Shown here one piece after another: positions 31,248 through 55,600 of a stretch of 64,000 nucleotides of DNA (the stretch's first letter is position 1; each line of letters begins with the position of its first letter). The DNA is from Escherichia coli (GTDB lineage Bacteria > Pseudomonadota > Gammaproteobacteria > Enterobacterales > Enterobacteriaceae). The stretch is from NCBI RefSeq assembly GCF_022846255.1, contig NZ_AP025682.1; one strand, given 5' to 3'. Under the pieces are notes generated by a model. It made no database searches and was not told the origin of the DNA. It saw only the letters and a program-made list of their open reading frames with translations. The position numbers and the translations under genes were made by a program.

Positions 31248-31345
31248 TGCTTTTCCTTCCGCCATTGAATACCTGTCCACTTATATTTGCTATAAAGAGT
31301 GTTGTGTATATTTTGCCATTTGGAGCAAAATTTTAAGGATAGAAT

Positions 31346-31362
31346 ATTAACTTAACCTTAAG
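31346..31362 (-). promoter_or_regulatory. Candidate PmrA (BasR) box in the arnB-ais divergent promoter region
   Basis: minus-strand CTTAAGgttaaGTTAAT resembles the YTTAAK-N5-YTTAAK direct repeat, about 85-100 bp upstream of arnB. Confidence 0.45.
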
Positions 31363-31554
31363 AAACTAATATTAGACGTAAATATTGAAATTTTTATATT
31401 TTTTCTTATTTAGGCTTTGCATTTGGCAAAATTTTGAGGCATTTTGCCGGCATCGCAGGATTTTTAATATTACACCAACTGCTAATTATCGCCAGAAATG
31501 TCGCTCAATTTCACGGTAATTGTCTGGTTGCGCTTGTCTATAGGTGGAGTTTAC

Positions 31555-32621: not shown

Positions 32622-32899
32622 AGGGGTATTCCTTATAAATAAAAAGAAACCATGAGAATACGGTAACTCAGAAATATGTGAAAGTGACAGTAATCTCTTT
32701 TGCGATTATAACTGCACTTATTATTATTTTTGTGTGTATCGATAAAGTATGTTTATTTTTTCGGCGTTTAATTATTTAAGAAGTATTTAGTTACAATAAG
32801 TGACTAGATCCCTTTTTTCGCTCATTGAATCCTCTGTGCCAGGCAGTACAATCCCGCAGCTTTGGGAATTTTGATTTATTGCTTGTGGGAGAGGGGAAA

Positions 32900-49725: not shown

Positions 49726-52011
49726 TCAGATCTTACATGCGCCGCTTTCGCAGCCATCGTCCTGGATTGACGGCACCAGATCGTCTTGTGCGTCTTCAGC
49801 ACCGTCACGGGTGTTCTGATAATACAGCGTTTTGACCCCGAATTTGTAGGCGGTGAGCAGGTCTTTCAGCAGTTGCTGCATCGGCACTTTTCCTGACGGG
49901 AAGCGTGACGGATCGTAGTTGGTGTTAGCAGAGATCGACTGATCGATAAATTTCTGCATGATACCCACCAGTTGCAGGTAGCCATCGTTACCCGGCATTT
50001 CCCACAGCAGTTCATAGGCGTCGTGCAGATGCTCGTAGTCCGGCACCACCTGGCGCAGAATACCGTCTTTCGACGCTTTGATGCTGACGTAACCACGCGG
50101 CGGTTCAATACCGTTAGTGGCGTTAGAGATCTGCGAAGAGGTCTCGGACGGCATCAGGGCAGAAAGCGTGGAGTTACGCAGGCCGTGCGTTTTGATTGAC
50201 TCACGCAGTGCTTCCCAGTCGTAATGCAGCGGCTCATTAGCGATGGCATCCAGATCTTTCTTATAGGTATCGATCGGCAGGATCCCTTTCGCGTAAGTGG
50301 TTTCGTTAAACCACGGGCACGCCCCTTGCTCTTTCGCCAGCTCATTAGACGCTTTCAGCAGGTAATACTGAATGGCTTCGAAGGTTTTATGCGTCAGGTT
50401 GTTGGCGCTGCCGTCGGAGTAGCGTTTACCATGCTTCGCCAGGTAGTAAGCGAAGTTGATCACACCAATACCCAGCGTACGACGACCCATCGCTCCACGT
50501 TTGGCGGCCGGGATCGGGTAATCCTGATAATCCAGCAGCGCGTCGAGTGCGCGTACTGCCAGAATTGCCAGCTCTTCCAGTTCATCCAGGCTGTTAATTG
50601 CGCCCAGGTTGAAAGCAGACAGCGTACACAGCGCGATTTCACCGTTCTCGTCGTTGACGTCGTTCAGCGGTTTGGTCGGCAGGGCGATTTCCAGGCACAG
50701 GTTAGACTGGCGCACTGGCGCGATGGCCGGATCAAACGGGCTATGGGTATTGCAGTGGTCAACGTTCTGAATATAGATACGACCGGTAGATGCACGTTCC
50801 TGCATCATCAGCGAGAACAGCTCAACGGCTTTCACACGCTGCTTGCGGATGCTGTCGTCTTTCTCATATTTGGTGTACAGGCGTTCAAACTCTTCCTGAT
50901 CGGCGAAGAACGCGTCGTACAGCCCCGGTACGTCGGACGGGCTGAATAGGGTGATATCTTCACCTTTCAGCAGACGGGTATACATCAGTTTGTTGATTTG
51001 TACCCCGTAGTCCATATGACGCACGCGGTTGCCTTCCACCCCACGGTTGTTTTTCAACACCAGCAGGCTTTCCACTTCCAGATGCCACATCGGGTAGAAC
51101 AGTGTTGCCGCACCGCCACGCACACCGCCCTGAGAGCAGGATTTCACCGCTGTCTGGAAATGTTTGTAGAACGGAATACAACCGGTATGGAACGCTTCGC
51201 CACCGCGAATCGGGCTACCCAGCGCACGAATACGCCCGGCGTTGATGCCGATCCCGGCACGCTGGGAAACGTATTTAACAATCGCGCTGGAGGTGGCGTT
51301 AATGGAATCCAGGCTGTCGCCGCACTCGATCAGCACGCATGAGCTGAACTGACGAGTCGGGGTACGCACGCCGGACATGATTGGCGTCGGCAGCGAAATT
51401 TTAAATGTGGAAACCGCGTCGTAAAAACGCTTCACGTATTGCAGGCGCGTTTCACGCGGGTAGTTCGAGAACAGGCACGCGGCAACCAGAATATAAAGGA
51501 ACTGGGCGCTTTCGTAGATTTCGCCGGTCACGCGGTTCTGTACCAGATATTTGCCTTCCAGCTGCTTAACGGCAGCATAAGAGAAGGTCATATCACGGTC
51601 GTGATCGATAAACGTGTCCATCTGCTTGAACTCTTCTTCCGTGTAGTCTTCCAGCAGATGATTATCGTATTTGCCCATCTCGACCATTTTCACCACATGG
51701 TCGTACAGTGCAGGCGGCTCAAACTGACCGTAGGCTTTTTTACGCAGGTGGAAGATCGCCAGACGTGCGGCGAGATACTGATAATCCGGCGCATCACGGG
51801 AGATCAGGTCTGCGGCAGCCTTGATAATGGTTTCGTGGATGTCAGAGGTCTTGATACCGTCATAAAACTGAATGTGGGAGCGCAGCTCGACCTGGGAAAT
51901 CGAAACGTTATGCAGTCCTTCTGCCGCCCAATCCAGAACGCGATGGATTTTGTCGAGATTGATGCGCTCTGTGCTACCGTCGCGCTTTGTCACCAGCAGA
52001 TTCTGATTCAT
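49726..52011 (-). CDS. nrdA: Ribonucleoside-diphosphate reductase 1 alpha subunit
   Basis: 761 aa [29 protein letters not shown]..., ATP-cone N-terminus. Confidence 0.93.
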
Positions 52012-52074
52012 GTATGTCGTACCTGTTTTTCAATAGCTTCATGCAGACTACCTGTAGTGAGGGAAGCTGCTAAG

Positions 52075-52120
52075 AACACTATATATAGGGGGTATGTTTG
52101 GGATTCACTGCAAGATAGTG
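52075..52120 (-). promoter_or_regulatory. Candidate tandem NrdR boxes in the nrdA promoter
   Basis: two 16-bp imperfect palindromes acactatatatagggg and cactgcaagatagtgt, 64-110 bp upstream of the nrdA ATG. Confidence 0.45.
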
Positions 52121-52152
52121 TGAAACTGGCCCTCTTGCAAGTGCATAACTTT

Positions 52153-52161
52153 GTGGATAAC
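52153..52161 (-). promoter_or_regulatory. DnaA box upstream of nrdA
   Basis: + strand tgtggataa = reverse complement TTATCCACA, exact 9-mer consensus. Confidence 0.6.
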
Positions 52162-52686
52162 TCAGGAAGGAAAAAGTGGCTTCCGCGCACCTTAGGTCAG
52201 ACAAGGTGTCCGGGAAAGTCAATGGGAAGAGAAAAATTTGTTAAAAATAACCGTTCGGTGAATTCTTGAACGGTAAAATAGGATAGGTAAATTGATATAG
52301 ATGGTTTATTAATCTTGTTGCTAATGATTGCCAAAATTGATCTAGGCACAAGTCGTCACATAATCTGATGTATCAGTTGTGGTCAATATATAAGCGAGTG
52401 TAAGCGATTGTTGAGTCGGAAATGGTTGTTTTATATTCGGTTATTGTTAAATACTAAGCCAATTTGTTACTTTTGTATTTATTATAAGAATATTATTTAT
52501 TGCTTTAATTCAGTTTAAATATAACCGATTTACCTTAAAGTTATTAATTTGAATTGTGATGCATCTAAATTAATTATCAGATAATAACAAAATAGTTATT
52601 ACATCAGGGGCAGAATTTACAAAAGAAAAATACCCTATATCGCATAATGCGATTAAATACGCCATCTTATAGAAAATGATGGTTAG

Positions 52687-55600
52687 ATGAATATGCGGAT
52701 TATCTCTCTACGCAAGGAGTATTTATCTTTACTCCCGTCAATGATTGCATCTCTTTTCTCTGCTAACGGTGCCGCAGCGGTCATTGATTCATGCCAGGGA
52801 TATGATATCAAAGCGAGCTGTCAGGCCAGCAGGCAAAGCCTTTCGGGTAATATACAGGACTGGAGCATCGCGGATGGACAATGGTTGATTTTTTCGGGTA
52901 TGGTCAATAATACCAGCGGTGGCGCAGTATTTTTGCAGCACAGTGCTGAATTTACGATATCACCACAAAATGAAACAGGGATGACCCTGTTTGCTGATAA
53001 CTCGGTTAGTGGCGAATATAATAATGGTGGGGCTATCTTTGCTAAAGAAAACTCAACGATAAATCTTGCGAATGTTATTTTCGACAGTAATGTTGCAGGA
53101 GGCTATGGCGGAGCAATCTATTCTGCCGGTACCAATGATACCGGTGCCGCCGATTTACGTGTCACTAACGCCGTATTTCACAATAACATCGCTAATGACG
53201 GCAAAGGCGGTGCAATTTATACCATCAATAATGACGTCTATTTAAGTGATGATGCTTTTAATAATAATCAGGCATATACATCAACCAGCTATAGTGATGG
53301 GGACGGCGGTGCCATTGATGTTACGGATAATAGTACGGATAACACACATCTTTCAGGAAAAACGATAATTAATAATACCTCCTTTACCAATAACTATGCA
53401 GAAGGTTATGGCGGAGCAATTTATACCAGCAGCACCACATCCCCGTATCTTATTGATATTTCTGTTGATGATAATTATGACCAAAACAATGGTGTGATGA
53501 TTGATGAAAATAACAGCGCCTCGGGATATGACCATTCGGCGACGGCAGCGGCGGGGGGCTTTATGTATATCGGTCATAGTGTGGCTGAATTTAACATTGC
53601 CGCCGATAAAACGCTGGTAATAGGCAACACCAGCAACGATGGTGCGATTGATTCTCTTGCCGGAACGGGAGTCATCGTGAAAGAGGGAGCGGGAGAGTTA
53701 GTCCTCAATGCCGACAATAATGCGTTTACCGGCGAGATGAGTATCCAGAATGGCGAGGTGACGCTGGGGCGCAGCGATGAGTTAATGAATGTCGGCGACA
53801 CGCACTGTCAGAGCGATCCGCAGGATTGCTTTGGTCTGATGGTCGGCAGCACTGTTCATTCTGAGTATCAGGCAGAACTGAATGTTGGCAATACACAACA
53901 AACGTTTGTGCACTCATTAACCGGTTTTGCTAATGGCATTTTGAATATCGACGCAGGCGGCAATGTTACCGTAAACCAGGGCGGTTTTTCCGGCTCGATT
54001 CAGGGTGAAGGACAGTTGACGGTAGCGCAAGATGGCAGCTATCTCCTGACAGGGGCGCAGTCGATGGCATTAACCGGCGATATTGTGGTGGAAGATAACG
54101 CCGTATTGTCGCTAGCGGGGAATCAGGCCGATTTACGGGCAATGCAGAGCGATCCGCAATCGATCGTGCTAAATGGCGGAGTATTGGATCTCTCTGATTT
54201 CACCACCTGGGATGGCGATAGCTCATACAATGACGGTCTGCAAATCAGCGGCAGCGGGGGGACAGTGATTGGCAGTAATGATGTCGTTGATATCAGCAGT
54301 GGCGATGATTTACATATTGGCGGCAGTGATGCCAGCCAGAATGGCGTTTATGTCGTCATTAATGCGGGGGATCAGCGCGTAACGCTGGCGAATAACAACG
54401 GTTATCTCGGTAATACGCAAATCGCCTCCGGTACGCTTGAAGTCAGCGATAATTCGCAATTGGGGGACACAAGTTACAACCGTTCAGTGATCTTCACAGA
54501 TCCCCAACAACACAGTGAAATGGATGTGACGACTGATGTTGACACTCGCTCGGCTACAACAGGTCAGGGCAGGAATATTGAAATGCGCGCTGATGGCGAA
54601 ATACACGTTGAGGATGGCGTAGATACGCAATGGGGCGGATTGATGGCGGATAGTACCGGGCAACAACTGGATAGCGTAAGCACGTTGACTAAAAGTGGCG
54701 GCGGTACGCTGGAGTTGACCGCCAGCGGCACTGCGACGTCTGCGGTACGTGTGGAGGACGGAACGCTAAAAGGTGAAGCGGAGAATATTATTCCTTATGT
54801 TTCTTCACTGTGGGTGGGGGAAGACGGTGTTTTTGAAACCGGGCAAAATCAGGATATTCGCTCAATCGATGCCACCTCTGGCGGCGATATCGACATAACC
54901 GATGGTACTGTGTTGCGATTGACGCAGCAGGATACGAACCAGGTGCTGGATGCCTCGCTGTTTAGCGGCGACGGTACGCTGGTGAATGCCACCGATGGCG
55001 TGACGCTGGCAGGTGAGCTTAATACCAACCTTGAAACTGACAGCCTGACTTATCTTTCCGACGTGACGGTCAATGGTGATCTAACTAATACTTCCGGTGC
55101 TGTCAGTCTGCAAAATGGCGTCGCTGGCGACACGCTCACGGTAAACGGTGATTACATCGGTGGCGGTACGTTGTTTCTCGACAGCGAATTAAACGGCGAT
55201 GACTCGGCAAGCGACCAACTGGTGTTGAACGGCAATACCTCGGGTAACACGACCGTGGTGGTTAACCCCATTACTGGCATTGGTGAACCGACATCTACAG
55301 GTATTAAAGTGGTTGATTTCGCAGCTGATCCCGCGCAGTTTCAAAACAATGCGCAGTTCAGTCTGGCAGGAAGCGGCTACGTCAATATGGGGGCGTATGA
55401 CTACACGCTGGTGGAAGATAACAACGACTGGTATCTGCGATCACAAGAAGTCAATCCGACGCCGCCGCCCGATCCAGACCCGACTCCAGATCCTGATCCC
55501 ACGCCGGATCCCGACCCAACCCCCGACCCAACCCCCGACCCGGAACCTACGCCTGCCTACCAGCCGGTGTTGAATGCCAAAGTTGGTGGATATTTTAATA

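Follow-up and report, generated by a model that had tools for sequence, protein, structure and literature searches.

The divergent spacer between nrdA and yfaL of Escherichia coli K-12 is already described in the literature from both of its sides. Towards yfaL it houses promoter island 2342143_534 (yfaL/ypaB), 1 of the 78 islands of Panyukov & Ozoline (2013, PMC3661553), which is scored 'A: according to all studies' for H-NS binding (Grainger, Oshima, Kahramanoglou) and is associated with predicted foreign genes (PMC3661553); the K-12 spacer is also marked HNS in genomic SELEX (systematic evolution of ligands by exponential enrichment), and gives a peak with RpoD holoenzyme in vitro (PMC3946193). 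Promoter islands as a class bind RNA polymerase and form open complexes, and give very little full-length RNA. Towards nrdA, the spacer contains the nrdAB promoter region, which is known for its NrdR and DnaA boxes, for Fis, IciA and H-NS sites and for an upstream AT-rich element. Binding of NrdR to nrdAB boxes 1 and 2 has been shown (PMC12176259), regulation of the operon by DnaA has been reviewed (PMC8203912), H-NS, Fis, IciA and DnaA all act on it (PMC4009431), with H-NS listed as a repressor (PMC4009431; PMC12176259), and an upstream AT-rich cis element for nrd cell-cycle control was published by Sun et al. (1994), to go by the citations of that work in later papers (PMC2892513; PMC8203912). 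Here we describe the counterpart of this spacer in a 64,000-nucleotide stretch of an E. coli chromosome (contig NZ_AP025682.1 of assembly GCF_022846255.1; the whole stretch is called the window below), a segment that surrounds nrdB-nrdA, yfaL, ubiG and gyrA. A sequence-only reading had flagged 52201-52692 as a long AT-rich leader of the autotransporter gene yfaL, typical of H-NS-bound, silenced adhesin promoters, and possibly harbouring phase- or stress-dependent regulation, a small RNA or a small open reading frame (ORF). The H-NS part of that interpretation survives our analysis; leader, phase variation, small RNA and small ORF do not.

We find that the control region between the divergent nrdAB and yfaL is composite, with two parts, and that the flagged stretch makes up the greater share of it. 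The nrdA(-)/yfaL(+) spacer occupies 52012-52692, with the flagged interval inside it; its 681 bp make it the longest intergenic region of the window (the runner-up has 408 bp). On the nrdA side, from 52012 to about 52273-52349 (~260-340 bp), it is a conserved nrdAB regulatory module; on the yfaL side, at ~52350-52692 (~340 bp), it is a very AT-rich, TpA-rich and fast-evolving segment, with a core at 52400-52650. The left limit that was flagged, 52201, therefore falls within the upstream regulatory DNA of nrdAB, and ~150 bp of the interval (52201-52349) belong to the nrdAB module. Nor is 'leader' an apt word for the remainder: no transcription start in the one usable K-12 start-site data set defines a 480-nt 5' untranslated region (UTR) of yfaL, and the spacer is a divergent one whose nrdA-proximal part is nrdAB control DNA. 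We consider it likely that this composite region contains an H-NS-silenced AT segment that was acquired with yfaL. That the spacer is AT-rich and bound by H-NS is already known, having been published for K-12; the additions of the present analysis, which are modest, concern how the AT core came to be inserted and how its haplotypes are structured.

The spacer is 100% identical to that of strain Nissle 1917, to which the remaining genes, taken gene by gene, are 94.6-100% identical (nrdA DNA, 98.8%), and it is 88% identical to its K-12 homologue. The gene-by-gene differences, together with the loss of yfbK described below, mark the window as stemming from a strain other than Nissle 1917. When K-12 coordinates are carried over with the 1978-bp offset between genome versions, island 2342143_534 comes to lie at about 52209-52741 of the window. 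This is the orthologous locus, at near-identical coordinates, and the two share their length, their AT-richness and their crowding of promoter-like signals; they differ in that the window has the minority haplotype together with a 13-bp deletion in the nrdA 5' UTR, and in that the H-NS data are those of K-12. As in an H-NS-bound promoter island or xenogeneic-silencing region, AT-richness far above that of the genome extends over at least 300 bp, a horizontally acquired gene (yfaL) is present, and promoter-like signals are dense, their density being equal to the composition-matched expectation. The locus also resembles the H-NS-silenced cryptic adhesin loci of E. coli (the islands by ycgV, fim, yad and yeh; PMC3661553) in its AT-rich upstream region and low-GC 5' end, and because yfaL, too, is absent from sister genera, silent in the laboratory and expressed only with an inserted constitutive promoter. 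Unlike those loci, the yfaL segment is wedged against the control region of the essential and highly expressed nrdAB, and it accompanies a single gene with no large island.

The guanine-plus-cytosine (GC) content of 52201-52692 is 0.293, about 4.8 standard deviations below the window mean of 0.524 (standard deviation 0.048 among 492-bp windows), and falls to 0.215 over 52430-52620. The minima of the entire 64 kb all lie in the spacer, at 0.170 per 100 bp (52461), 0.204 per 191 bp (52441) and 0.287 per 492 bp (52214), so the strong AT-richness noted for the ~480 bp upstream of yfaL is the most extreme in the window at every scale that we tested. Over the whole spacer, GC is 0.336, which is similar to several other spacers of the window (0.33-0.38); what is exceptional is the length of the spacer and a ~250-bp core at 21-25% GC. 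Two details of the earlier description need amending. The contrast with GC-rich coding flanks is true of nrdA only, for the first ~800 bp of yfaL are themselves low in GC (0.37-0.47). The 'long A/T tracts' are mixed runs of A and T that are rich in TpA (TA frequency 0.107 vs 0.042 in the window), in which the longest homopolymer has 5 nt and runs of A or T of at least 4 nt number 12. In a crude consensus scan (promoter islands were originally defined with the PlatProm program), -10-like hexamers occur in the core (52400-52650) at 42.7/kb vs 6.5/kb in the window and full promoter-like sites at 8.1/kb vs 0.70/kb, both being the top bins of the window. Two of the other lowest 100-bp GC values in the window are those of 31248-31554 (arnB/ais spacer; 0.20) and 32622-32899 (nudI/yfaZ spacer; 0.23). 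Of these two, the ais/arnB spacer has likewise been published as a promoter island bound by H-NS, 2363626_315 (PMC3661553); with the nrdA-yfaL spacer, a simple GC scan of the window thus recovers two of the 78 known islands.

For the insertion history, a degenerate nrdA pattern was run over species-representative genomes and gave 80 loci. In ~45 of these, from other Enterobacterales and Aeromonas, ubiG is the gene directly upstream of nrdA and is read in the same direction (among the genera are Citrobacter, Enterobacter, Cedecea, Kosakonia, Pluralibacter, Pantoea, Erwinia and Edwardsiella). The ubiG-nrdA spacer in the 19 loci that were measured has ~350-500 bp, a GC content of 0.39-0.57 and a 100-bp minimum of at least 0.30; within Enterobacteriaceae it has ~350 bp and a GC content of 0.39-0.44, with no 100-bp window below 0.30. 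Among the scanned loci, E. coli and E. albertii alone have yfaL between ubiG and nrdA, and one unclassified enterobacterium has a relative of it there; this enterobacterium, Enterobacteriaceae bacterium RIT691 (L032 9500-12364), has a yfaL-like autotransporter gene of 55% amino-acid identity that is divergent from nrdA. In a four-way alignment, conservation within Escherichia is near-perfect from the nrdA ATG to ~52273 and partial at 52274-52349, and is then gone; BLAST homology to the window stops at 52349 in E. albertii and at 52341 in L054. The boundary of the insertion is deduced from this conservation within Escherichia and from the ancestral spacer length, because BLAST to other genera aligned a single block, that of the NrdR box (52075-52096). 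Bearing in mind that the ~340 bp conserved from nrdA equal the length of the ancestral spacer (348-359 bp in other genera), yfaL appears to have been inserted at the ubiG-proximal end of the old spacer, and we infer from the sequence comparison that it came together with ~340 bp of very AT-rich 5' flank. Unlike the nrdAB module, the extreme AT core of the window lies farther from nrdA than the ancestral spacer reaches, and even within Escherichia it lacks conservation.

The second addition is the allele structure of the core. The region is present, once per genome, in 5,425 of 5,426 complete E. coli genomes, and in these 52400-52692 falls into two main types: 987 genomes match the window at ≥95% identity and 4,436 at 80-90% (most of the listed matches at ~83%), with 2 between. 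The passenger domain of yfaL (53500-54900), in 5,420 genomes, is similarly divided, with 1,244 at ≥99%, 4,175 at 60-80% (most of the listed matches at ~71%) and 1 between. The counts for core and passenger differ by ~258, and therefore the linkage of the two is strong but incomplete. Identity to K-12 runs from 97.8% in nrdA to 78.5% in 52471-52650, 95% in 52651-52692, 62-77% in the passenger, 97.0% in ubiG and 98.6% in gyrA, and the yfaL allele as a whole is 81% identical to K-12 yfaL. The signal-peptide region of yfaL (52693-52800) and its C-terminal barrel (~55300-56463) are much better conserved than the passenger. Within the core (52400-52650), 47 substitutions in 251 bp (18.7%) separate the window from K-12, with GC contents of 0.25 vs 0.28, and these substitutions are roughly balanced, 21 sites being A/T in the window and G/C in K-12 and 14 the reverse. 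In a third allele (E. albertii, L054) the core cannot be aligned beyond ~52274-52349, and its 100-bp GC minimum is still 0.19-0.21; spacer length is 681-698 bp across the Escherichia alleles. Composition and length that are kept while the sequence changes fit a composition-reading protein such as H-NS; foreign DNA that has yet to drift toward the base composition of the host may also be compatible with the allele pattern.

The explanation that we favour is that the AT-rich segment would act, owing to its composition, as a high-affinity platform for H-NS. The core, as the heart of the 'promoter island', is the proposed site of nucleation and of the filament, from which H-NS would polymerise across the AT segment and on into yfaL, whose 5' end is low in GC; RNA polymerase may bind many of the promoter-like hexamers, with little or no productive yfaL transcript, and the adhesin would remain cryptic unless H-NS were displaced. 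Since the filament would abut the upstream region of nrdAB, it probably contributes to the published repression of that operon as well. That H-NS occupies the spacer and represses nrdAB, that RNA polymerase binds there and that yfaL has no mapped start is taken from K-12 work. The K-12 homologue is indeed enriched for H-NS, being bound in all of the chromatin immunoprecipitation (ChIP) studies and in SELEX (PMC3661553, PMC3946193), as the idea of a silenced adhesin promoter had anticipated; the outcome named as refuting that idea, no H-NS enrichment, was thus not seen. In the K-12 start-site list, the one usable set of its kind (the SMRT-Cappable-seq supplement has no entry for the nrdA-yfaL locus), the entries go ubiG, ypaB, nrdA, and a yfaL start was not found (PMC3415461); phenotypes of YfaL have been studied only after insertion of a constitutive promoter before the gene (PMC3764049). 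We infer three things: the K-12 situation extends to the haplotype of the window, yfaL is silent on account of H-NS, and nrdAB is under some influence of the filament.

Several observations weigh against this explanation. The H-NS occupancy is that of the K-12 homologue only, to which the core is just 78.5% identical, and the literature that we consulted holds no experiment showing directly that loss of hns derepresses yfaL. Composition accounts in full for the excess of promoter-like sites (4 found vs 3.5 ± 2.1 in dinucleotide shuffles). The H-NS high-affinity motif TCGATAAATT has 3 matches at two mismatches, all of them outside the core, in a scan that was uninformative. As to curvature, whose profiling had been suggested as a check, A-tract phasing, which would predict strong intrinsic curvature, was looked for and not found: the AA/TT periodogram shows no peak at 10-11 bp, and 69% of shuffles scored no worse. 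Finally, the spacer between the yfaL-like gene and nrdA of RIT691 (665 bp) has a GC content of 0.42 and a 100-bp minimum of 0.33, and this ordinary composition means that extreme AT-richness is not obligatory for the arrangement.

The favoured model and its four rivals were each rated for plausibility independently rather than as parts of a partition, some of them being compatible with one another, so that the ratings add up to slightly more than unity. We regard it as unlikely that the core is a neutral by-product, that is, a functionless, AT-drifted and partly foreign spacer to which H-NS binds as to any AT-rich DNA. This would fit its fast evolution (21.5% divergence between haplotypes in 52471-52650, and a third allele that is unalignable), the fact that no conserved motif, ORF or RNA structure was found inside the core, and a number of promoter-like sites that is not above the expectation from composition. 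Yet a 100-bp GC content of 0.17-0.21, below every other spacer of the window, is kept in three independently diverged alleles, the substitutions between haplotypes are near balance (21 vs 14), spacer length has been held at 681-698 bp and the region was never lost in 5,425 genomes; furthermore, the published H-NS occupancy implies a regulatory consequence whatever the origin of the DNA. Lower still do we rate the idea that the main role of the core is that of a far-upstream element of nrdAB, its position upstream of yfaL being only incidental. The core is contiguous with the nrdAB upstream region, on which, as noted, H-NS, Fis, IciA and DnaA all act, and the element of Sun et al., as cited, is both upstream and AT-rich; against this, Escherichia-wide conservation ends at ~52273-52349, and the core is hypervariable and begins ~295 bp upstream of the point where nrdA transcription starts. 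In other Enterobacterales nrdA is regulated from a spacer of only ~350 bp, with ubiG directly upstream, and for that reason DNA beyond ~340 bp cannot be an ancestral nrd element; judging from the alignment, the likeliest candidate for the AT-rich element of Sun et al. is probably the conserved 52214-52349.

It is very improbable, in our estimate, that the spacer encodes a long regulatory leader (~320 nt from a distal promoter such as that predicted at 52337-52364), a small RNA or a small ORF such as ypaB. Both main haplotypes retain the distal sigma-70-like promoter, whose hexamers also appear, as the 'constitutive promoter' of yfaL, in genomic SELEX with RpoD holoenzyme (PMC3946193); in addition, ypaB is annotated in K-12, and 'ypaB' RNA is reported to respond to HusR (PMC12844172) and to the replication inhibitor azidothymidine (AZT), and therefore some plus-strand transcription across ypaB DNA probably exists. 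On the other hand, the K-12 start-site list yields no yfaL start, Rfam returns 0 matches for the spacer at E ≤ 1, no terminator-like site was found in it, and the fold z-scores of 52395-52692 are ordinary (-0.95 on the + strand, -0.90 on the - strand); on the last three of these grounds we rejected a small RNA or riboswitch. Each ORF of at least 15 aa within the core is interrupted in K-12, in L054 or in E. albertii, and the two ORFs of the spacer that are intact across alleles both sit in the near-invariant nrdA promoter, where intactness carries no information. The ATG start of ypaB in K-12 is CTG in the window, stops interrupt its frame in E. albertii and in phage/plasmid homologues (E. albertii, CMS-2020a and L003), and substitutions at codon positions 1/2/3 (8/6/7, 13/8/9, 9/7/7 and 9/8/8) show no concentration at the third position. 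Small ORFs, ypaB included, were thus rejected on conservation and codon-position tests; ypaB is probably not a gene, its conservation looking like that of DNA sites such as the DnaA and HusR boxes. Least credible of all is a phase switch for the adhesin, whether by Dam/OxyR as in agn43, by an invertible element as in fim, or by slipped strands. The paradigm of a Dam/OxyR switch is agn43 (flu), in which three GATC sites are clustered within the OxyR site. Both agn43 and yfaL have upstream regions of AIDA-I/Ag43-type autotransporter adhesins, YfaL being Ag43-related, and yfaL is one of the genes for which a preprint reports differential methylation at GATC sites (10.1101/2022.12.14.520158). The yfaL spacer, however, has one GATC in 681 bp (52339-52342, in the -35 hexamer of the predicted yfaL promoter) and no cluster within a regulator site. 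Scans for simple repeats and inverted repeats were also negative: no homopolymer exceeds 5 nt, no tandem repeats and no direct-repeat family of more than two copies were found, and the best inverted repeats (12-20 nt, 75-87% complementary) are as expected in AT-rich DNA and are not kept between alleles. No recombinase gene is nearby, the neighbours being nrdA and ubiG. On these three scans, the phase-dependent regulation that had been proposed was rejected.

Returning to the H-NS-silenced segment, a more far-reaching version of it is that the hyper-AT core is a selected 'composition-only' silencer cassette, in which sequence is free to vary while AT content and length are held, and in which haplotypes tune nrdAB or yfaL differently. 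We hold this to be doubtful. If the core is such a cassette, it may recombine semi-independently of the dimorphic yfaL passenger, as in the roughly 258 mixed genomes. Because it would abut the nrdAB control region, the haplotypes could set different degrees of H-NS spreading, so that nrdAB or yfaL would be expressed differently from one phylogroup to another; in the B2-type haplotype, the 13 bp that are missing, in linkage with it, from the nrdA 5' UTR could add to such differences.

The features of the region are collected in Table 1. Its nrdA-side module, from 52012 to 52215, reproduces the K-12 nrdAB promoter almost base-for-base in the start context, -35 element, both DnaA boxes and NrdR box; it is in this interval that the NrdR box, the -10 and -35 elements and the DnaA boxes hold their K-12 positions relative to the mapped start. 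The core promoter with its DnaA boxes (52106..52160) is nearly invariant in the four Escherichia alleles. Relative to K-12, L054 and E. albertii, 13 bp are deleted between 52030 and 52031 (GGAATTCTTTCCG, window plus strand), and the nrdA UTR is for this reason shorter than the 107 nt of K-12. This deletion appears to be tied to the B2-type spacer haplotype, because K-12-type alignments begin only at query base 20. Farther upstream, within the moderately AT-rich part of the module, there is a small inverted repeat, ACCGTTC...GAACGGT, at 52250-52274.

Table 1. Features in and around the nrdA-yfaL spacer (window coordinates)
Feature	Position	Strand	Basis or remark
nrdA, class Ia ribonucleotide reductase alpha subunit	49726..52011	-	761-aa ORF; RefSeq annotation of matching Nissle 1917 locus
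nrdA 5' UTR, 94 nt	52012..52105	-	K-12 start 2342780 (107-nt UTR, PMC3415461) mapped to 52105
NrdR box CCCCTATATATAGTGT	52076-52091	-	NrdR-box match, in nrdA 5' UTR
nrdA -10 TATCTT	52112-52117	-	identical to K-12 promoter string 'CACAAAGTTATGCACTTGCAAGAGGG..CACACTATCTTGCAGTGA' (PMC3415461)
Counterpart of K-12 ypaB (b4605)	52126..52269	+	K-12 annotation (L002 6595-6738); Nissle without annotation
nrdA -35 TTGCAA	52134-52139	-	same K-12 promoter string (PMC3415461)
DnaA box TTATGCACT	52140-52148	-	DnaA-box scan
DnaA box TTATCCACA	52152-52160	-	DnaA-box scan
Inverted repeat CCGCGCACCTT/AAGGTGTCCGG	52183..52213		repeat search; encloses HusR (YnfL) box
HusR (YnfL) box CAGACAAGGTGTCCGG	52198-52213		exact match to ypaB/nrdA-spacer box in PMC12844172 Table 1
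nrdA-side upstream region, ~33% GC, moderately AT-rich	52214..52349		four-way alignment
Best sigma-70-like promoter toward yfaL, TTGATC-16-CATAAT, predicted	52337..52364	+	consensus scan
Hyper-AT-rich hypervariable core	52400..52650		25.1% GC; 17% in lowest 100 bp
Perfect palindrome ATCGCATAATGCGAT	52639..52653		40-54 bp upstream of yfaL ATG; read from sequence
Homologue of two GadX ChIP-exo footprints at K-12 yfaL start	52677..52738		coordinates mapped from K-12
yfaL/ehaC, AIDA-I family autotransporter adhesin	52693..56463	+	ORF; RefSeq annotation of Nissle locus

Part of the nrdA module is found in mobile elements also. Copies of 52122-52251 that are 76-94% identical occur in P1-family phages (L126, phage P1 NC_005856, 1501-1615; L127, P7; L003 3001-3115) and in 317 plasmid records, where they adjoin, just upstream, the hot gene (a pol III theta homologue). 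The block includes the -35 element, both DnaA boxes, the HusR-box region and the ypaB frame, and excludes the -10 element and the NrdR boxes. We dropped this homology as a novel finding, because the P1 genome already annotates it ('94 pct identical to E. coli DNA region containing two predicted DnaA boxes', with upfO as the counterpart of ypaB). Also of interest is a weak antisense start (4 reads) that Kim et al. 2012 (PMC3415461) recorded inside nrdA on the yfaL strand, at K-12 2343399, and assigned to ypaB with a 640-nt leader; it maps to ~51499 (+) of the window. If real, a transcript that begins there would read across the nrdA promoter and continue into the AT-rich spacer DNA.

On the yfaL side, the predicted distal promoter would yield a 5' UTR of ~320 nt. 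Next to the gene, a block at 52651-52692 is conserved at 95% between the two main haplotypes, and the palindrome ATCGCATAATGCGAT lies at its upstream edge; the palindrome contains a -10-like CATAAT (TATAAT in K-12) without a usable -35. The annotated start of yfaL corresponds to 52693, and another in-frame ATG, at 52687, is non-conserved. The evidence for stress regulation is weak: two GadX peaks from ChIP with exonuclease digestion (ChIP-exo; P16 and P17, K-12 2342146-2342207; signal-to-noise 7.8 and 8.5) straddle the K-12 yfaL start, but neither differential expression nor a known transcription start accompanies them (PMC4918353). At some distance from these genes, the vWA-domain gene yfbK, which lies between yfbL and rbn in Nissle 1917, is absent from the window; its place (14242-14649) is taken by a 408-bp AT-rich spacer with a GC content of 0.343 and a 100-bp minimum of 0.21, and the first 45 bases of Nissle yfbL are without a match in the window.

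For annotation, these results mean that the region should be entered as the control region shared by the divergent nrdAB and yfaL, with a published promoter island, bound by H-NS, inside it; an entry as candidate leader, small RNA or small ORF would be wrong, and K-12 ypaB is doubtful. If the haplotypes were to differ in their effect on nrdAB, the silencing of an adhesin would be linked to the supply of deoxynucleoside triphosphates. On a small scale, and cleanly, the locus exemplifies how a foreign adhesin gene, with an AT-rich silencing platform of its own that it brought along or acquired, can come to lie directly against the promoter of an essential operon.

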